A stretch of DNA of 64,000 bases from Escherichia coli (GTDB lineage Bacteria; Pseudomonadota; Gammaproteobacteria; Enterobacterales; Enterobacteriaceae), in NCBI RefSeq assembly GCF_044647545.1, contig NZ_CP172818.1. One strand, given 5' to 3'. The notes under the pieces were generated by a model. That model did not search any database and was not told where the DNA came from. It saw only the letters and a program-made list of their open reading frames with translations. The translations under genes were made by a program, and so were the position numbers. This document shows, one piece after another, positions 3,266 through 63,250 of the stretch. The first letter of the stretch is position 1. Each line of letters begins with the position of its first letter.

Positions 3266-3961
3266 TTACTGCCCGTAATATGCCTTCGCACCATGCTTAC
3301 GCAGATAGTGTTTATCCAGCAGCGTTTGCTGCATATCCGGTAACTGCGGCGCTAACTGACGGCAGAATATCCCCATATAAGCGACCTCTTCCAGCACGAT
3401 GGCGTTATGCACTGCATCTTCGGCATTTTTGCCCCATGCAAATGGGCCGTGAGAATGGACCAGGACGCCGGGCATTTGCGCCGCATCGATACCCTGTTTT
3501 TCGAAGGTTTCTACGATGACGTTACCGGTTTCCCACTCATATTCACCGTTGATTTCTGCGTCGGTCATTTTGCGGGTGCAGGGAATGGTGCCGTAGAAAT
3601 AGTCGGCGTGGGTGGTACCGGTTGCTGGAATCGACTGACCCGCCTGCGCCCAGATGGTGGCGTGGCGCGAGTGTGTGTGCACAATGCCGCCAATGGACGG
3701 GAATGCCTGATAGAGCAGCCGGTGAGTTGGCGTGTCGGAGGAGGGCTTTTTCGTACCTTCAACCACTTCACCGGTTTCGATACTGACCACGACCATATCG
3801 TCAGCGGTCATGATGCTGTAGTCGACGCCGGAAGGTTTGATCACCAGGACGCCGCGCCCGCGATCAACGGCGCTGACGTTACCCCAGGTGAGCGTGACCA
3901 GGTTGTGTTTTGGCAGCGCCAGGTTGGCTTCTAATACCTGGCGTTTGAGATCTTCTAACAT
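3266..3961 (-). CDS. araD: L-ribulose-5-phosphate 4-epimerase
   Basis: 231-aa ORF, class II aldolase-like; last gene of araBAD. Confidence 0.95.
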
Positions 3962-3974
3962 GTTGACTCCTTCG

Positions 3975-4138
3975 TGCCGGATGCGCTTTGCTTATCCGGC
4001 CTACAAAATCGCAGCGTGTAGGCCTGATAAACTCGAAAATTTATCGGTCAAAATGCATACCGCGCTCGCATCAGGCGGTGAATGCCGGATGCGCTTTGCT
4101 TATCCGGCCTACAAAATCGCAGCGTGTAGGCCTGATAA
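3975..4138. repeat. REP/BIME-type palindromic units in the araA–araD intergenic region, including a 56-bp perfect direct repeat
   Basis: tgccggatgcgctttgcttatccggcctacaaaatcgcagcgtgtaggcctgataa occurs at 3975..4030 and again at 4083..4138; the gccggatgcg...cgcatcaggc motifs are typical REP. Confidence 0.8.
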
Positions 4139-4183
4139 GACGCGTCAGCGTCGCATCAGGCGTTACATACCTGATGCGGCTAC

Positions 4184-5686
4184 TTAGCGACGAAATCCGT
4201 AATACACTTCGTTCCAGCGCAGCGCGTCTTTAAACGCTGGCAGGCGGGTATCGTTATCAATCACTGTGATTTCAATGTCGTGCATCTCGGCGAACTGGCG
4301 CATATCGTTGAGGTTCAGCGCATGGCTGAAAACGGTATGGTGCGCGCCACCAGCGAGGATCCACGCTTCGGAAGCAGTTGGCAGATCCGGTTGCGCTTTC
4401 CACAGCGCATTCGCCACCGGCAGTTTCGGCAGGGAGTGCGGTGTTTTCACCGTGTCGATGCAGTTAACCAGCAGACGGTAACGATCGCCGAGATCAATCA
4501 AGCTGGCGACAATCGCTGGGCCGGTTTGGGTATTGAAGATCAGGCGGGCAGGATCGTCTTTACCGCCAATACCGAGGTGTTGAACGTCGAGGATCGGTTT
4601 CTCTTCTACGGCGATCGACGGACAGACTTCCAGCATATGGGAGCCGAGCACCAGGTCATTACCTTTTTCGAAGTGGTAAGTGTAGTCCTCCATAAAGGAG
4701 GTGCCGCCCTGCAGACCGGTTGACATCACCTTCATGATGCGAAGCAGGGCGGCAGTTTTCCAGTCGCCTTCGCCCGCAAAGCCGTAGCCCTGCTGCATCA
4801 GACGCTGTACGGCCAGACCAGGAAGCTGCTTCAGACCGTGCAAATCTTCAAAGGTGGTGGTGAACGCGTGGAAGCCACCTTGTTCCAGGAAACGCTTCAT
4901 CCCCAGCTCAATACGCGCCGCTTCCAGCACGTTCTGTCGTTTTTCGCCGTGGATTTGTGTCGCAGGCGTCATGGTGTAGCAGCTTTCGTACTCATCGACC
5001 AGCGCGTTAACATCGCCATCGCTGATGGAGTTCACTACCTGCACCAGATCGCCAACCGCCCAGGTATTGACGGAGAAACCGAACTTGATCTGTGCGGCAA
5101 CTTTATCGCCATCGGTGACCGCCACTTCACGCATGTTATCGCCAAAACGGCAGACTTTCAGATGACGGGTATCCTGTTTAGATACCGCCTGACGCATCCA
5201 GGAGCCGATACGCTCATGTGCTTGTTTATCCTGCCAGTGACCGGTAACGACGGCATGTTGCTGACGCATACGCGCGCCGATGAAGCCGAACTCGCGACCG
5301 CCATGCGCGGTCTGGTTCAGGTTCATAAAGTCCATGTCGATGCTGTCCCACGGCAGCGCCGCGTTGAACTGGGTGTGGAATTGCAGCAACGGTTTGTTGA
5401 GCATGGTCAGGCCGTTGATCCACATTTTGGCCGGGGAGAAGGTGTGCAGCCACACCACCAGACCAGCGCAACGATCGTCGTAATTCGCGTCACGGCAAAT
5501 AGCGGTGATTTCATCCGGCGTGGTGCCCAGCGGTTTCAGCACCAGTTTGCAGGGCAGTTTCGCTTCCGTATTCAGCGCATTAACGACGTGCTCGGCATGT
5601 TGGGTGACCTGACGCAGGGTTTCCGGGCCATACAGATGCTGGCTGCCAATTACAAACCACACTTCATAATTATCAAAAATCGTCAT
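4184..5686 (-). CDS. araA: L-arabinose isomerase
   Basis: 500-aa [23 protein letters not shown]... Confidence 0.95.
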
Positions 5687-9464: not shown

Positions 9465-9493
9465 GAGATAGTTTGCACCGGCGCTGGTTTGTT

Positions 9494-9533
9494 CCCCTCA
9501 CCCTAACCCTCTCCCCGGAGGGGCGAGGGGGCT
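9494..9533. repeat. GC-rich palindromic intergenic element (cccctcaccctaaccctctccccggaggggcgagggggc)
   Basis: Inverted repeat ccctctcccc/ggggcgaggg in the convergent yabI–thiQ gap; resembles a dispersed E. coli intergenic repeat or bidirectional terminator. Confidence 0.5.
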
Positions 9534-9545
9534 GTCCGTGCGCTT

Positions 9546-10244
9546 TTAACCTGTAATCCCCAACAGCGCCGAAGCACTCGCCTTACCGCTCAACAGCTCA
9601 TCGGTCTTACCCTGCCAGGCGATGCGCCCATCGGCGACCACCACCGAGCGCGTGGCAATCCGCGCAGCATCTTCCACACTGTGCGACACCATCAATAACG
9701 TCATTTTTTGCTGCTGGCAGCTCGTGCTCACCAGCGTCAACATCTCCTGACGTAACGCCGGATCGAGCGCAGAGAACGGTTCATCGAGCAATAAAATCGG
9801 CTGTTCGCGTACCAGACAACGCGCTAACGCCACGCGCTGTCGCTGACCGCCGGAAAGCTCGCCCGGTAACCGCGCTATTAAATTATCAATCCCCATCTGA
9901 CGGGCAATCGCGTGCATTTTCCCCTGCTGTGCCGCGTTCAGTTTCAACCCCGGATTTAGCCCCAGCCCGATGTTCTGCGCGACCGTCAGGTGACTGAACA
10001 GGTTGTTTTCCTGAAACAGCATCGACACCGGACGGCGTGACGGCGGCGTCGTGGTGTGATCAACGCCATCGATAGTCAGCGAACCGCTGGCTGGCGTCAG
10101 AAAACCGGCGATCAAATTCAGCAGGGTACTTTTACCCGCGCCGCTTGGCCCGAGGATCGCCACCTGCTCGCCGCGTTCTACCGTTAAGCTAAAACGCATC
10201 GGCAAATGGTGATAAAGCCAGGTGATATCAGTCAGTTTTAACAT
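9546..10244 (-). CDS. thiQ: thiamine ABC transporter ATP-binding protein
   Basis: Track ORF 9546..10265; start set at [13 protein letters not shown] (232 aa); Walker [10 protein letters not shown]. Confidence 0.9.
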
Positions 10245-11838: not shown

Positions 11839-12797
11839 TCGCTAATCCATGCCTGACGTTGTGCCGCCACTTCGGCTGGCGTGAACTCCAGCGTGGTTGC
11901 CGGTTTGGTCAATTGTTCAAACCCGGCAGGCAGCGTGACATTTGCCACCGGATACATCCAGTTGCCGGTTGGGATCGCATTCTGGAAAGCCGGAGAAACC
12001 ATAAACTGGAGAAATTTTTGCGCCAGCTCCGGCTGCTTGCTGGCAGCGGTGCGGGCGGCGACTTCCACCTGCAGATAGTGACCTTCGCTGAAGTTCGCGG
12101 CGGCGTAGTTATCTTTCTTCTCTTCGAGAATGTGATAAGCCGGAGAGGTGGTGTAACTCAGTACCAGATCGCTTTCACCTTTTAAAAACAGGCCGTAGGC
12201 TTCGCTCCAGCCTTTGGTGACCGTGACCGTTTTCTTCGCCAGTTTCTGCCAGGCTTGTGGGGCGTCATCGCCATAGACTTTTTGCATCCACAACAGCAGG
12301 CCCAGCCCCGGCGTACTGGTGCGCGGATCCTGATAAATCACCCGCCAGTTTTGATCGCTCTCAACAAGCTCTTTCAGGCTTTGTGGCGGGTTTTTTAGTT
12401 TGTTCTTGTCATAGACGAAGGCGAAGTAGCCGTAATCAAACGGTACGAAAGTGTCATTATTCCAGCCGCCGGGAACGTTAACGGCTTCCGCTGCCACACC
12501 GCTTTTAGCAAACAGCCCGGTTTTGCTGGCGGCATCTAACAGGTTGTTATCCAGCCCCAGCACCACATCGGCTTTGCTGTTTTTGCCTTCCATCCGTAGA
12601 CGGTTGAGAAGCGAAACGCCATCTTCCAGCGCCACCAGTTTCAGTTCGCAATTACAGTCGACTTCAAAGGCTTTTTTGACCACCGGACCAGGTCCCCAGT
12701 CGGCGGCGAAGGAATCGTAGGTATAAACAGTCAGAACGGGTTTAGCTAAAGCGGGTGCTGTACAGAGCAACAGCAGGGGAAGATATTTTTTTAACAC
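11814..12797 (-). CDS. thiB: thiamine/TPP periplasmic binding protein
   Basis: Track ORF 331 aa; likely 327-aa protein from an internal GTG start (VLKKYLPLLLLCTAPALA signal peptide). Confidence 0.9.
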   Translation of the reverse strand: MLKKYLPLLLLCTAPALAKPVLTVYTYDSFAADWGPGPVVKKAFEVDCNCELKLVALEDGVSLLNRLRMEGKNSKADVVLGLDNNLLDAASKTGLFAKSGVAAEAVNVPGGWNNDTFVPFDYGYFAFVYDKNKLKNPPQSLKELVESDQNWRVIYQDPRTSTPGLGLLLWMQKVYGDDAPQAWQKLAKKTVTVTKGWSEAYGLFLKGESDLVLSYTTSPAYHILEEKKDNYAAANFSEGHYLQVEVAARTAASKQPELAQKFLQFMVSPAFQNAIPTGNWMYPVANVTLPAGFEQLTKPATTLEFTPAEVAAQRQAWISEWQRAVSR

Positions 12798-12842
12798 TTT
12801 GCACCTCAAAGAAGAGTGGCAAAGGACTTGAGAAGGAGCCTC

Positions 12843-12925
12843 AAATCCCTTCGCCGGCGTTATCCGGATCAGGTTCGACGGGTATTTTCTCAGCGCACGC
12901 GGCAGCGTGGCACCCCGTTGAGAAC
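12843..12925 (-). promoter_or_regulatory. TPP (thi-box) riboswitch in the thiBPQ leader
   Basis: Minus-strand reads ...ggggtgcc...gctgagaaaatacccgtcgaacctgatccggataacgccggcgaaggga, the conserved thi-element core, directly upstream of thiB. Confidence 0.85.
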
Positions 12926-13119
12926 GGCGTTAGTGTAGTGATTTTGTTATCAACCAGCAATCATAGAGAAGGCGTATTAAAAAAGCCAATATTCGTTCAG
13001 CTATCAAGGACGTATTTGCATAGCTGGGAAGCTTTGAACCGAAAGAATCCCTTAGCACAGTCAAAATCGGTAATGCAACCTTATTGCGTGAATGACGATT
13101 TTTGACATATTCTTTCAGG

Positions 13120-13712
<593 letters not shown>

Positions 13713-13713
13713 G

Positions 13714-15369
13714 CGATGGATCCGGCGGCGCAAACCACGCTGATTTAAAATCGAACCAGCCGAGGGTGTTCATACGTAGACCGCGCATACTGCGTTGCCC
13801 CTGAATGATCAGCCAGTGGTGGATAAGCGGCACCATTGCTTTGCTGGCGACCAGTTGCTGGCACCAGTTCGCCAGGTTCATTTCGCCATTGCGCCAGCGG
13901 GCGGCGTCGGCTTGCCAGTCGATGGGAAGACAGTGTTGGAGCAGCGGCACCTCGCACAAGTGCGCGAACAGCGAAAAATCCAGCGGCAGCGTAAAGTTGG
14001 CGCTGTTAAGCCAGATATCGCTCTCGATCTCTCCTTCATGCCACTGATCGTAGCTGATCTCTTTGATTTCCAGCGTGACCTGGTGACTTGCCAGAATCTG
14101 CTGCATGATCCCGGCAATCACTCGATGCTCAATATGATCCTGATAAAAGGTCAGGGTGAGGCTTTCCAGCCCGGCGGGTTTTTCGCAATGTGTCGGACGA
14201 GCATGGTGCCAACGGGGGAGCAGTCCATAAGCCGGGAACCACAGTTGCTGGTACTGTTCCTCAGCGAAATAGACCAGATTAGTTGGAGAAAGCACATAGC
14301 TTACCCAGTCCCTGACTTGCTGATTCGCCCCGCGATGGGTGCGGCTGTCGAACAGTAAATAGTAGCAACCTTCCTCCAGGCGGCTTTCAATCTCTTTTTC
14401 CTCGCCCTGTGGCCCTTTTAGCATCAGCCCTCCGGCTGGCTCGTCGGCAATTTCCGGCAGAACCCAGACGTTAACTTCGTCGATTAATGCCCGGTAACCG
14501 AAGAAGTCATCGAATGCCTGAATTTTCAGTTGATTGGTGCTGTTGCGGATCACCGCATACGGACCGGTGCCGATGGGATGGCTGGCAAAGTTACTGAGGG
14601 TTTCCCATTCGCGCGGCAGGATCATCGCCGGAACTTGCCCCAGCAGTAACGGCAACCAGCGATCCGGCTGCGTGAGGTGGATATCCAGCGTCCAGGGCGT
14701 CGGCGATACAATTTCAGCAATATGCGAATAGAGCGGCAGCGTATTGATCCGTTTTAAAGAGGCGATCACATCGTCCATTTCCAGTTCACGACCATGATGA
14801 AAATGGACTCCTGGACGCAAAAAGAAACGCCAGTGAAGCGGTGATATTTGCTGCCAGTGGTGGGCGATGTCTGCTTCCAGTTCCCCATTTTCCTCATTTA
14901 TGCGCGTTAGCGAACTGAAGATTTGCCGGGCGATATGGGTTTCGGAACGACGCAATGCACTGCCGGGCAGCAGATTACGCAACGGACGATAGTAGAGAAC
15001 GCGCAGGATGTGCCGCCCCTGGCGGAAGCTGCGTCCCAGATGAGAAACCAACATTTGCCGCACAGCCGCTTTGTCGCCAACCAGTTGCACCAGTTGATCG
15101 ATACGATCCTGCTCCAGCAGGTCTTCCGCCCGCTGTTGCTGAAGCGCCAGCCCGGTATAGAGGAATGTCAGACGCGAGCGTTTACCGCGCCCGACTTCCG
15201 CTTCCCACGTCAGCCAGCCGCGATCCTGCATGGTGTTGAGCAGGGTGCGCATATGACGACGCGAGCAACTCAGTAACGCTGCCAGTTCGTTGAGCGTGGT
15301 CTCCTGCGATTTACCCTCGCAGCATTGCCACAGGCGGATGAACTGTTGTTGCAGACGAGCAGATGGCAT
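13714..15369 (-). CDS. sgrR: sugar-phosphate stress transcriptional regulator SgrR; 3' end uncertain because the frame runs into the low-complexity tract
   Basis: Track ORF 13660..15390 (576 aa); start set at [15 protein letters not shown]; remembered length 551 aa would place the native stop near 13714, but here the frame continues ...[22 protein letters not shown] into homopolymer sequence. Confidence 0.8.
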
Positions 15370-15436: not shown

Positions 15437-15663
15437 GATGAAGCAAGGAGGTGCCCCATGCGTCAGTTTTATCAGCACTATTTTACCGCGACAGCGAAGT
15501 TGTGCTGGTTGCGTTGGTTAAGCGTCCCACAACGATTAACTATGCTGAAGAACTGATGCAGTGGGAGGGGAGTCATTCTGACTACTGATTTGCGGACATC
15601 ATGTGTGACTGAGTATTGGTGCTAATCGCCACGCCAGCAGTGATTATTGCTGGCTTTTTTCTT
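15437..15663 (+). ncRNA. sgrS: small RNA SgrS (glucose-phosphate stress)
   Basis: Starts gatgaagcaagg 67 bp from the divergent sgrR start; conserved seed gtgtgactgagtattggtg at 15602..15620; hairpin ccagcag/ctgctgg plus T-run at 15633..15663. Confidence 0.8.
15458..15556 (+). CDS. sgrT: small protein SgrT encoded within sgrS, 32 codons here
   Basis: ATG after ggagg RBS; MRQFYQHYFTATAKLCWLRWLSVPQRLTMLKN; shorter than the 43 aa I recall for K-12. Confidence 0.6.
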   Translation: MRQFYQHYFTATAKLCWLRWLSVPQRLTMLKN

Positions 15664-15687
15664 TGGCGATTGAGCCGACGGGACAAA

Positions 15688-17704
<2,017 letters not shown>

Positions 17705-45116: not shown

Positions 45117-47822
45117 ATGCTAATCAAATTATTAACTAAAGTTTTCGGTAGTCGTAACGATCGCACCCTGCGCCGGATGCGCAAAGTGGTCAACATCATC
45201 AATGCCATGGAACCGGAGATGGAAAAACTCTCCGACGAAGAACTGAAAGGGAAAACCGCAGAGTTTCGTGCGCGTCTGGAAAAAGGCGAAGTGCTGGAAA
45301 ACTTGATCCCGGAAGCCTTCGCTGTGGTGCGTGAAGCCAGTAAGCGTGTTTTTGGTATGCGTCACTTCGACGTTCAGTTACTCGGCGGTATGGTTCTTAA
45401 CGAACGCTGCATCGCCGAAATGCGTACCGGTGAAGGTAAAACCCTGACCGCAACGCTGCCTGCTTACCTGAACGCACTAACCGGTAAAGGCGTGCATGTA
45501 GTTACCGTCAACGACTACCTGGCGCAACGTGACGCCGAAAACAACCGTCCGCTGTTTGAATTCCTTGGCCTGACTGTTGGTATCAACCTGCCGGGCATGC
45601 CAGCACCGGCAAAGCGTGAAGCTTACGCAGCTGACATCACTTACGGTACGAACAACGAATACGGCTTTGACTACCTGCGCGACAACATGGCGTTCAGTCC
45701 TGAAGAACGTGTACAGCGTAAACTGCACTATGCGCTGGTGGACGAAGTGGACTCCATCCTGATCGATGAAGCGCGTACACCGCTGATCATTTCCGGCCCG
45801 GCAGAAGACAGCTCGGAAATGTATAAACGCGTGAATAAAATTATTCCGCACCTGATCCGTCAGGAAAAAGAAGACTCCGAAACCTTCCAGGGCGAAGGCC
45901 ACTTCTCGGTGGACGAAAAATCTCGCCAGGTGAACCTGACCGAACGTGGTCTGGTGCTGATTGAAGAACTGCTGGTGAAAGAAGGCATCATGGATGAAGG
46001 GGAGTCTCTGTACTCTCCGGCCAACATCATGCTGATGCACCACGTAACGGCGGCGCTGCGCGCTCATGCGCTGTTTACCCGAGACGTCGACTACATCGTT
46101 AAAGATGGTGAAGTTATCATCGTTGACGAACACACCGGTCGTACCATGCAGGGACGTCGTTGGTCCGATGGCCTGCATCAGGCAGTGGAAGCGAAAGAAG
46201 GTGTACAGATCCAGAACGAAAACCAGACGCTGGCGTCGATCACCTTCCAGAACTACTTCCGTCTGTATGAAAAACTGGCGGGGATGACTGGTACTGCTGA
46301 TACCGAAGCTTTCGAATTCAGCTCCATCTACAAGCTGGATACCGTCGTTGTTCCGACCAACCGTCCAATGATTCGTAAAGATCTGCCGGACCTGGTCTAC
46401 ATGACTGAAGCGGAAAAAATTCAGGCGATCATTGAAGATATCAAAGAACGTACTGCGAAAGGCCAACCGGTGCTGGTGGGTACTATCTCCATCGAAAAAT
46501 CGGAGCTGGTATCAAACGAACTGACCAAAGCCGGTATTAAGCACAACGTCCTGAACGCCAAATTCCACGCCAACGAAGCGGCGATTGTTGCTCAGGCAGG
46601 TTATCCGGCTGCGGTGACTATCGCGACCAACATGGCGGGTCGTGGTACAGATATTGTGCTCGGTGGTAGCTGGCAGGCAGAAGTTGCCGCGCTGGAAAAT
46701 CCGACCGCAGAGCAAATTGAAAAAATTAAAGCCGACTGGCAGGTACGTCACGATGCGGTACTGGCAGCAGGTGGCCTGCATATCATCGGTACTGAACGTC
46801 ACGAATCCCGTCGTATCGATAACCAGTTGCGCGGTCGTTCTGGTCGTCAGGGGGATGCTGGTTCTTCCCGTTTCTACCTGTCGATGGAAGATGCGCTGAT
46901 GCGTATTTTTGCTTCCGACCGAGTATCCGGCATGATGCGTAAACTGGGTATGAAGCCAGGCGAAGCCATTGAGCACCCGTGGGTGACCAAAGCGATTGCC
47001 AACGCCCAGCGTAAAGTTGAAAGCCGTAACTTCGACATTCGTAAGCAACTGCTGGAATATGATGACGTGGCTAACGATCAGCGTCGCGCCATTTACTCCC
47101 AGCGTAACGAACTGCTGGATGTCAGCGATGTGAGCGAAACCATCAACAGCATTCGTGAAGATGTGTTCAAAGCCACCATTGATGCCTACATTCCGCCACA
47201 GTCGCTGGAAGAAATGTGGGATATTCCGGGACTGCAGGAACGTCTGAAGAACGATTTCGACCTCGATTTGCCAATTGCCGAGTGGCTGGATAAAGAACCA
47301 GAACTGCATGAAGAGACGCTGCGTGAGCGCATTCTGGCGCAGTCCATCGAAGTGTATCAGCGTAAAGAAGAAGTGGTTGGTGCTGAGATGATGCGTCACT
47401 TCGAAAAAGGCGTCATGCTGCAAACTCTCGACTCTCTGTGGAAAGAGCACCTGGCGGCGATGGACTATCTGCGTCAGGGTATCCACCTGCGTGGCTATGC
47501 ACAGAAAGATCCGAAGCAGGAATACAAACGTGAATCGTTCTCCATGTTTGCAGCGATGCTGGAGTCGTTGAAATATGAAGTTATCAGCACGCTGAGCAAA
47601 GTTCAGGTACGTATGCCTGAAGAGGTTGAGGAGCTGGAACAACAGCGTCGTATGGAAGCCGAGCGTTTAGCGCAAATGCAGCAGCTTAGCCATCAGGATG
47701 ACGACTCTGCAGCTGCAGCTGCACTGGCGGCGCAAACCGGTGAGCGCAAAGTAGGACGTAACGATCCTTGCCCGTGCGGTTCTGGTAAAAAATACAAGCA
47801 GTGCCATGGTCGCCTGCAATAA
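45117..47822 (+). CDS. secA: preprotein translocase ATPase SecA
   Basis: 901-aa ORF; C-terminal zinc-binding [14 protein letters not shown]. Confidence 0.97.
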
Positions 47823-47839
47823 AAGCTAACAGTTGAAGT

Positions 47840-47869
47840 AAAAGGCGCAGGATTCTGCGCCTTTTTTAT
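47840..47869 (+). terminator. secA terminator hairpin
   Basis: aaaaggcgcag gattc tgcgcctttttt. Confidence 0.65.
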
Positions 47870-47881
47870 AGGTTTAAGACA

Positions 47882-48271
47882 ATGAAAAAGCTGCAAATTG
47901 CGGTAGGTATTATTCGCAACGAGAACAATGAAATCTTTATAACCCGTCGCGCAGCAGATGCGCACATGGCGAATAAACTGGAGTTTCCCGGCGGTAAAAT
48001 TGAAATGAGCGAAACGCCGGAACAGGCGGTGGTGCGTGAACTTCAGGAAGAGGTCGGGATTACCCCACAACATTTTTCGCTATTTGAAAAACTGGAATAT
48101 GAATTCCCGGACAGGCATATAACTCTGTGGTTCTGGCTGGTCGAAAGCTGGGAAGGGGAGCCGTGGGGTAAAGAAGGGCAACCCGGTGAGTGGATGTCGC
48201 TGGTCGGTCTGAATGCCGATGATTTTCCGCCAGCCAATGAACCGGTACTTGCGAAGCTTAAGCGTCTGTAG
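47882..48271 (+). CDS. mutT: 8-oxo-dGTP diphosphatase (Nudix)
   Basis: 129-aa ORF with Nudix box GGKIEMSETPEQAVVRELQEEVGI. Confidence 0.95.
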   Translation: MKKLQIAVGIIRNENNEIFITRRAADAHMANKLEFPGGKIEMSETPEQAVVRELQEEVGITPQHFSLFEKLEYEFPDRHITLWFWLVESWEGEPWGKEGQPGEWMSLVGLNADDFPPANEPVLAKLKRL

Positions 48272-48277
48272 GTCAGA

Positions 48278-48365
48278 TAAGACGTTTTCGCCGCATCCGA
48301 CATTCGCACACGATGCCTGATGCGACGCTCCGCCCGCGTCTTATCAGGCCAGCGTCGCATCAGAC
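48278..48365. repeat. REP palindromic unit(s) in the mutT–yacG intergenic region
   Basis: Inverted motifs gcctgatgcgacgct / agcgtcgcatcaga and ggtcagataagacg / cgtcttatcaggcc. Confidence 0.75.
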
Positions 48366-48371
48366 AAAATG

Positions 48372-48569
48372 TCACTGCTTTGGCTCTTCGCTCCAGTCAT
48401 CGCTTTCGGAAAGATCGCCACTGCTGGGGATTCGTTTTTCTTCAGCAGCCCATTCTCCGAGGTCGATCAGCTGACAACGTTTGGAGCAAAATGGCCGAAA
48501 CGGGCTGATTTCACCCCACACCACCGTTTTCCCGCAGGTTGGGCAATTCACCGTAATAGTTTCTGACAT
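48372..48569 (-). CDS. yacG: DNA gyrase inhibitor YacG (zinc ribbon)
   Basis: 65-aa [43 protein letters not shown]... Confidence 0.9.
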
Positions 48570-48578
48570 TTTTACTCC

Positions 48579-49322
48579 TTAGCAACAGGCCAGTTCGAAA
48601 TCCAGACGTTCCGGTACCTGTCCGTTTTCACTGTCCAGCGGCATAAAACGAATGGCAAAACGGCTCTTATGACCGGAAATTTGCGGATAAAGCTGTGAAT
48701 CGAGTGACAGATTCAGGCGCAGCAAGTCGGCATCGCCACCGTTATCCTGATAAAAACCATTCAGGCTGGTTTGTTTACGGAAGGGGGCCGACTGGCGAAT
48801 TAAATCCAGCACCATGGTAAGTGCCTGGGTGAGCGGGTTCAGGCTGGCAATCCAGGTTTCTACCTGGCTGTCGCGCTGCGCCTGGGGTAGATGCAGCCAA
48901 ATGTGCAATGTAGGTAAATCAAAGCTACAACAGCCGCCTGGGATGCTCAGTCGCTGACGCACCAGAGCAATCAAACGATCTTCACGCAGAAATTGCCCGA
49001 TACGCGGCGCGGAAATTAATACGCTCCCCGCCGCTTTTAACTGCTGAATTAATGCTTCAATACGGCTCTGGTCCACGCCGGGCACGCCAATCCAGGTCTG
49101 GAGTTTACGTTGCTGCCGGTCAAGTTCTTTCAACAGCTCAGTGCGGACTTCGCCGCGCTCGAAAACATCCAGTAATTCACTGACATTACGGAAGAAATGC
49201 AGCGCGCCAGCGTGGTCAACGATGGGTAAATTAACGGTAAGTTGCTGAATCAAAAACTCAATGCGCAGCCATGTACGCATTTTTTCATTTAGTGGATGTT
49301 CAAAAAGGACCTGGGTCTGCAT
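48579..49322 (-). CDS. zapD: cell division factor ZapD
   Basis: 247-aa [27 protein letters not shown]... Confidence 0.9.
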
Positions 49323-62417: not shown

Positions 62418-63250
62418 ATGGCTATCGAAATCAAAGTACCGGACATCGGGGCTGATGAAGTTGAAATCACCGAGATCCTGGTCAAAGTGGGCGACAAAGT
62501 TGAAGCCGAACAGTCGCTGATCACCGTAGAAGGCGACAAAGCCTCTATGGAAGTTCCGTCTCCGCAGGCGGGTATCGTTAAAGAGATCAAAGTCTCTGTT
62601 GGCGATAAAACCCAGACCGGCGCACTGATTATGATTTTCGATTCCGCCGACGGTGCAGCAGACGCTGCACCTGCTCAGGCAGAAGAGAAGAAAGAAGCAG
62701 CTCCGGCAGCAGCACCAGCGGCTGCCGCGGCAAAAGACGTTAACGTTCCGGATATCGGCAGCGACGAAGTTGAAGTGACCGAAATCCTGGTGAAAGTTGG
62801 CGATAAAGTTGAAGCTGAACAGTCGCTGATCACCGTAGAAGGCGACAAGGCTTCTATGGAAGTTCCGGCTCCGTTTGCTGGCACCGTGAAAGAGATCAAA
62901 GTGAACGTGGGTGACAAAGTGTCTACCGGCTCGCTGATTATGGTCTTCGAAGTCGCGGGTGAAGCAGGCGCGGCAGCTCCGGCGGCTAAACAGGAAGCAG
63001 CTCCGGCAGCGGCCTCTGCATCAGCAGCTGGCGTGAAAGAAGTTAACGTTCCGGATATCGGCGGTGACGAAGTTGAAGTGACCGAAGTGATGGTGAAAGT
63101 GGGCGACAAAGTTGCCGCTGAACAGTCACTGATCACCGTAGAAGGCGATAAAGCTTCTATGGAAGTTCCGGCTCCGTTTGCAGGCGTCGTGAAGGAACTG
63201 AAAGTCAACGTTGGCGATAAAGTGAAAACTGGCTCGCTGATTATGATCTT
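62418..63250 (+). repeat. three tandem ~300-bp lipoyl-domain repeats with Ala/Pro-rich linkers inside aceF
   Basis: Near-identical segments ...gatcaccgtagaaggcgacaa(a/g)gc(c/t)tctatggaagttccg... at about 62500, 62800 and 63100, each carrying the lipoyl-lysine DKASME motif. Confidence 0.9.

Follow-up and report, generated by a model that had tools for sequence, protein, structure and literature searches.

Between the convergent genes mutT and yacG, the window analysed here (a 64,000-nucleotide stretch of the Escherichia coli contig NZ_CP172818.1, RefSeq assembly GCF_044647545.1) carries a short spacer with a pair of REP palindromes. An initial annotation of the sequence had expected the spacer of the K-12 reference MG1655 to be about 115 bp longer, with more REP units, and had read the difference as strain variation without functional novelty. 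The questions raised by the locus are what kind of element fills this spacer, how its short form relates to the longer one of K-12, and whether the difference is likely to matter to the two flanking genes.

According to the ORF list and RefSeq annotations (for mutT, those of FDAARGOS_497 and MG1655), mutT (8-oxo-dGTP diphosphatase, 129 aa) occupies 47882..48271 on the + strand and yacG (DNA gyrase inhibitor YacG, 65 aa) occupies 48372..48569 on the − strand. By ORF list and sequence the spacer, at 48272..48371, is exactly 100 bp long, as had been claimed, and the gene set around the locus comprises secA, mutT, yacG, zapD and coaE. We consider it very likely (probability about 0.88) that the spacer is a one-copy allele of a composite REP/BIME, made up of a Y REP, a 13-nt linker, a Z2 REP and a half-REP, and that the element is a generic one. 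That E. coli strains differ in the copy number of their REP/BIME elements has been on record since the 1990s; PMC3333891 repeats this, setting out the BIME classes and noting that copy number at a single locus differs between strains. Both the element and its polymorphism are here of an already known type, and the reading of the one-unit allele as strain variation rather than functional novelty stands.

Anatomy of the mutT–yacG spacer

The REP pair first noticed in the spacer was resolved by blastn-short, pattern search and Rfam into a Y-type REP and a Z2-type REP in inverse orientation. The Y REP lies at 48268..48301 on the + strand, where it matches the Y consensus at 84% over 32 nt (36 bits, blastn-short). 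Its stem arms (48272-48284 and 48289-48301) enclose a TTTT loop, and directly 5′ of the stem stands a GTAG tetranucleotide (48268-48271). A GTAG 5′ to the palindrome foot is needed for TnpA-REP binding (PMC3333891). The mutT stop codon TAG (48269-48271) lies inside this tetranucleotide, leaving 0 nt between the stop and the REP. In O157:H7, O145, EcN and other strains, GTAT replaces GTAG at the end of mutT; there, the gene runs three codons into the REP and ends at the TAA in GGATAAGG, giving a product of 132 aa vs 129 aa.

The heads of the two REPs are separated by the 13-nt linker ATTCGCACACGAT (48302..48314), which is the same as the linker of MG1655 unit 1 and, being short and head-to-head, has the typical BIME-2 form. 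The Z2-type inverted REP (iREP) follows at 48315..48349 on the + strand and reads GCCTGATGCGACGCT-CCGCC-CGCGTCTTATCAGGC, as identified by exact pattern, fold and alignment. It matches the Z2 consensus with 33 bits (blastn-short), and the exact Z2 pattern GCCTGATGCGACGC-N-GCGTCTTATCAGGC, which fits 48315-48349, occurs twice in the window against 0.00 occurrences expected from 100 shuffles. The CTAC expected to flank a Z2 iREP is absent from the window, where the tetranucleotide after Z2 is CAGC (48350-48353); MG1655 and IAI1 read GGC-CTAC at the end of Z2, whereas the window reads GGC-CAGC. Next comes a 16-nt half-REP remnant, AGCGTCGCATCAGACA (48351..48366, + strand), which had gone unmentioned in the initial annotation. 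This remnant forms an inverted repeat (94% complementary) with the Z2 head arm (48314-48329), with which it pairs in a longer alternative hairpin spanning 48314-48366. Five bases beyond the end of the half-REP is the yacG stop codon, placing the outer stem 5 nt from that stop. A ...GCATCAGAC remnant is retained at the half-REP position in all Escherichia alleles examined.

RNA folding gave the Y hairpin -5.9 kcal/mol on the + strand (z -0.65) and -14.3 kcal/mol on the − strand (z -4.4). The + strand fold is weak because of two A.C mismatches, the same positions forming G.U pairs on the − strand; the counterpart in MG1655 unit 1 reaches -13.1 kcal/mol on the + strand. Z2 folds at -21 kcal/mol on both strands (z about -5), and the outer hairpin of Z2 with the half-REP at -28.2 kcal/mol on the + strand (z -5.2) and -38.6 kcal/mol on the − strand (z -7.2).

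The arrangement, with a Y REP carrying a 5′ GTAG (48268-48301), a short linker of 13 nt and an inverse Z2 (48315-48349), is that of BIME-2 (Bachellier/Gilson classes; Ton-Hoang et al. 2012, PMC3333891), and like BIME-2 the window element is extragenic and located at gene 3′ ends. Moreover, it belongs to a highly repeated family, the MG1655 spacer as query matching at 19 places in the median E. coli genome. However, BIME-2 elements are typically found in multiple tandem copies, and the window spacer holds one unit, whose Z2 has no CTAC and which is followed by a half-REP. In MG1655, in E. albertii and in the remaining divergent Escherichia genomes sampled, the spacer holds an atypical BIME, or RIP-RIB (REP - IHF site - REP). 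The window shares with it the locus and the Y-s-Z2 unit but lacks the long linker and the IHF consensus: a search for the long L linker of BIME-1/RIP-RIB with the IHF consensus WATCAANNNNTTR found none, and the spacer contains neither TTGAT nor ATCAA. Judged by sequence, with no long linker and no IHF consensus, the window spacer cannot be an IHF-binding RIP element.

Strain background and comparison with MG1655

The window aligns to positions 62589..127277 of MG1655 at 94-98% identity, whereas it is ~100% identical over 16 kb to FDAARGOS_497, IMT16316, MS6198, ECONIH1 and others; the earlier suggestion of an E. coli strain other than MG1655 holds. A second query (window 12500-14300) had a record named 'strain ST648' among its best matches. 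ST648 belongs to phylogroup F (PMC12736214), and IMT16316 has been discussed together with ST648 (PMC6003029). At the sequence level, the window strain matches the ST648 lineage (phylogroup F).

In MG1655 (NC_000913.3), mutT lies at 111044..111433 and yacG at 111649..111846, giving a spacer of 215 bp, exactly 115 bp more than in the window, with four REPs against two. The expectation of a spacer about 115 bp longer with more REP units was correct, and MG1655 does not share the 100-bp form. Alignment gave the MG1655 order as a first Y-s-Z2 unit, a linker of ~37 bp containing TAACTCATTGATA, a second Y-s-Z2 unit and the half-REP; TAACTCATTGATA fits the IHF consensus in reverse complement. The surplus in MG1655 is one whole 115-bp unit, including the linker with the IHF consensus, and not merely extra REPs. 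Relative to K-12, the window allele lacks one Y/Z2 pair together with the IHF site. Where the spacer meets the two coding regions nothing has changed, and the Y REP and linker of the window are identical to those of MG1655 unit 1 at 41 of 42 positions.

A census of REPs (blastn-short against the Y, Z1 and Z2 consensus, matches >30 bits) counted 5 in the window against 12 in MG1655 over the homologous 64 kb. The araD–araA spacer contributes 3 and 6 of these, respectively, the yabI–thiQ spacer 0 and 2, and the mutT–yacG spacer 2 and 4, which bears out the earlier remark that REP copies are fewer here, the araA–araD and yabI–thiQ spacers included. The araD–araA spacer of the window (3976-4161) contains a further Z2-like copy at about 4019-4077, apparently split by an AT-rich insert of ~30 bp. 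The yabI–thiQ spacer (9476-9546) contains another GC-rich palindromic repeat (CCCTCACCCTAACCCTCTCCCCGGAGGGGCGAGGGGG) and no Y or Z REP; the MG1655 spacer holds a Z2 and Y pair. Further along, setA (sugar exporter, ~1.26 kb), which lies between sgrS/sgrT and leuD in MG1655 (77592-78854), is missing at window 15660-15694.

All 25 of the 25 nearest complete genomes have a 98-bp one-unit spacer. The window has a CC in addition in the Z2 loop, at 48330-48331 (GCTCCGCCCGCG vs GCTGCCCGCG), which in the alignment with these 25 genomes is private to it. Elsewhere in the window, between the thiB/sroA region and sgrR, 13115-13705 is ~600 bp of homopolymer-rich, low-complexity sequence with A runs of at least 30 and G runs of ~19, and the C-terminus of sgrR is corrupted. 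The nearest ST648-lineage genomes have 2,057 bp in this place, with the T3SS effector gene espY2 annotated, against 1,801 bp in the window. This stretch has the look of masking, or of an artefact of assembly or consensus, and not of biology. The 2-bp CC difference may itself be a sequencing error, since the same window holds such an artefact.

A variable-number repeat across Escherichia

Alleles were counted in 5,426 complete E. coli genomes, using junction-specific queries for the two-unit alleles. The K-12-type two-unit allele was found in 1,868 of the 5,426 (34%) and a second two-unit allele, with a different linker, in 267, so that the two together make up ~39% of the genomes, K-12 included. 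An uninterrupted mutT–yacG stretch was found in 5,115 genomes, which leaves by subtraction about 2,980 (~55%) with one unit; in an evenly spaced sample, 33 of 60 genomes had the one-unit allele, in agreement with this figure. Coverage of at least 80% of the whole MG1655 spacer does not discriminate between alleles, one-unit alleles reaching ~90%, and record span was used in the sample instead. With the caveat that the genome collection is clonally biased, the one-unit allele is the majority form in E. coli and the K-12 reference carries a minority allele.

The one-unit alleles are not all alike. Those of IAI1 and O157:H7 are identical to K-12 unit 2. In a second type, shared by the window with FDAARGOS_497 and TUM12368, a Y and linker resembling unit 1 are joined to another Z2 loop and right flank, and these resemble unit 2 of the second two-unit allele. 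In B1.H1.1 the single unit matches the first unit of the second two-unit allele up to and including the Z2 loop. The second two-unit allele, exemplified by E. coli 2020CK-00188 and shared by 266 other genomes, has an IHF-like linker (TAACACGTTGATA). Its inter-unit sequence ATCTACAATTTTAACACGTTGATATGTAAGGTCTT is largely unlike the K-12 linker and still fits the IHF consensus, which suggests independent acquisition or conversion from another BIME.

Outgroups were sought by scanning species-representative genomes with a degenerate pattern for the YacG C-terminus, cutting the spacers between the yacG stop and the MutT tblastn match, and counting units. The outgroup set comprises four Escherichia genomes, E. 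fergusonii and the E. coli species representative not being among those that the scan recovered. Spacers are 561 bp with 5 units in E. albertii NBRC 107761, 562 bp with 5 units in Escherichia sp. E1V33, 331 bp with 3 units in 'E. coli' SCPM-O-B-8794 (MutT 88% identical) and 216 bp with 2 units in Escherichia sp. MOD1-EC7003. The repeat period is 115-116 bp in all four arrays. A strict IHF consensus is present in every inter-unit linker of three of the four genomes, occurring four times each in E. albertii and E1V33, while both linkers of SCPM-O-B-8794 match only the relaxed consensus. Beyond Escherichia, REPs are arranged differently in the 87-173 bp spacers of Citrobacter species, the spacers of the two Salmonella subspecies (314-340 bp) do not contain the Escherichia array, and in most other Enterobacteriaceae the mutT–yacG spacer is 0-60 bp. 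The locus is an Escherichia-wide variable-number repeat, a composite BIME of one to five copies, of which the window has the minimal form.

Across the genus, the array is a tandem repeat of [Y - short linker - Z2 - long linker with IHF consensus], with a unit of 115-116 bp. The window allele has most likely arisen by recombination or slippage between tandem units that removed the IHF linker, and the short form is probably a contraction because the sister species carry two to five units.

The spacer is interrupted in about 309 genomes (~6%), two of which were examined. In STEC17-183 (retrieved locus 3468-4758) IS621, of the IS110 family, is inserted at ...TTATCAGGCCT^ACGTGCGG, a point in the Z2 tail reading GGCCT^ACG, i.e. 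...ATCAGGCCT^ACG. At the corresponding site the window, which has no insertion sequence, reads GGCCAGCG vs GGCCTACG in the target. In EcN (EcN_Sk; retrieved locus 3449-4879) IS1397, of the IS3 family, lies in the Z2 loop with a TGGC duplication. REPs are known targets of both IS1397 and IS621 (PMC1525189). A repeat of one to five copies with a recurrent site for REP-specific insertion could serve as a typing marker.

Alternative readings and possible effects

Two other accounts of the short spacer concern its history. The opposite direction of change, in which a one-unit ancestor was followed by separate gains of units in MG1655 and in the other Escherichia species (TnpA(REP)-mediated amplification being one conceivable route), draws on the fact that all sampled strains of B2, F, B1 and E have one unit, the basal E. 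coli groups sampled (B2 and F) included, and on the quite different linkers of the two long E. coli alleles, which suggest more than one gain or conversion. However, all four non-coli Escherichia representatives carry two to five units with the same architecture and period, and each kind of one-unit allele corresponds to another part of the two-unit alleles, as deletions with varying crossover points would give. We therefore regard independent gain as unlikely, and take the retention of different parts of the array by one-unit alleles as a sign of contraction. An ancestral array of several units, shortened repeatedly by crossovers at differing points, appears the more parsimonious reading of the sequences, a direction based on four outgroup genomes and the similarity of units, which concerted evolution could make misleading. 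The short spacer could also be an assembly artefact, a two-unit repeat collapsed to one, a thought encouraged by the ~600 bp of homopolymer sequence at 13115-13705, where relatives encode espY2, and by the private 2-bp difference in the Z2 loop. Yet none of the 25 nearest complete genomes departs from the one-unit 98-bp spacer, a single unit is what ~55% of complete E. coli genomes carry, and a 115-bp repeat is well inside read length. Collapse was rejected, near-identical closed genomes having the one-unit spacer too, and we hold it to be extremely improbable.

Two further readings would give the one-unit BIME a dedicated function. One is that it is the gene for a naRNA4-like nucleoid-associated sRNA which, with HU, bridges cruciform DNA and condenses the nucleoid. 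The naRNA4 model (Rfam RF02564) matches 48271-48350 on the + strand with 62.0 bits (E = 2e-10), above its gathering score of 59.5, and ~80% of annotated REPs are reportedly transcribed (PMC4550694). Moreover, naRNA4, 77 bp long in Rfam, is defined as a Y–l–Z2 unit with two hairpins, and the ~77-80 bp Y-linker-Z2 unit of REP325 (Qian et al. 2015, PMC4550694) has the same composition as the window element. However, the Rfam model represents one REP325 unit (PMC4550694), which is a BIME unit of the general Y-Z2 kind, and every unit of that kind will score. Even the − strand reaches 49 bits. No promoter-like site was found in the spacer, and the Y hairpin on the + strand, at -5.9 kcal/mol, is no better than shuffles where two hairpins are said to be required. 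REP325 itself has six units and a demonstrated HU-dependent role, and condensation activity has been shown for REP325 RNA only, whereas the window has one unit with a Y hairpin that is weak on the matching strand. The match is a family-level resemblance and not evidence for a functional sRNA, and we consider such a gene very unlikely. The other reading takes the REP pair for a bidirectional intrinsic (Rho-independent) terminator of mutT and yacG. Strong GC-rich hairpins between two convergent genes would suit this role, and REPs have been reported as transcription terminators (PMC3333891). However, a consensus scan found no GC-rich stem followed by a T-run on either strand of 48272-48371, its sole match within 47750-48650 being inside mutT, and what follows the stems is ATTCGC and AAAATG on the + strand and CATCGTG and CTACAGA on the − strand. 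There is accordingly very little chance, in our estimate, that the pair acts as an intrinsic terminator. Scans and folds gave no support for an intrinsic terminator, a promoter or an independent sRNA gene in the spacer.

For the generic one-unit BIME that we favour, possible effects can be proposed from what is known of the family. The hairpins would lie in the 3′-UTRs of the two converging mRNAs, where they could block 3′-to-5′ exonucleases and dampen read-through. According to Liang 2015, as cited in PMC12306157, translation is lowered when a REP stands no more than 15 nt from a stop codon. Since both lie within 15 nt of stop codons, the hairpins here may lower translation of the upstream genes. 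Such an effect would be more plausible for yacG, where a stem of -38.6 kcal/mol begins 5 nt after the stop, and less so for mutT, where the adjacent Y hairpin has -5.9 kcal/mol on the mutT strand. As DNA, the element is a potential site for gyrase, HU or TnpA(REP), and a potential target for REP-specific insertion sequences. Equally, the unit is partly decayed, its Y hairpin being weak on the mutT-sense strand and its Z2 without CTAC, and it may be functionally inert.

MutT is an antimutator and YacG a gyrase inhibitor. If the number of units (one to five, with or without the IHF site), together with the REP-encoded mutT stop, tuned the expression of MutT and/or YacG, the locus would act as an inherited but reversible control over mutation rate or supercoiling, differing from one E. 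coli lineage to the next. An effect of copy number on either protein would be modestly interesting if true; nothing here suggests it, and we consider such tuning very doubtful.

A further Rfam match was found just upstream of mutT, at 47800-47867 on the + strand, to the Salmonella sRNA STnc40 (73.5 bits vs a gathering score of 45). The match covers the end of secA and the secA–mutT spacer, and includes the hairpin GGCGCAGGATTCTGCGCC followed by a T-run.
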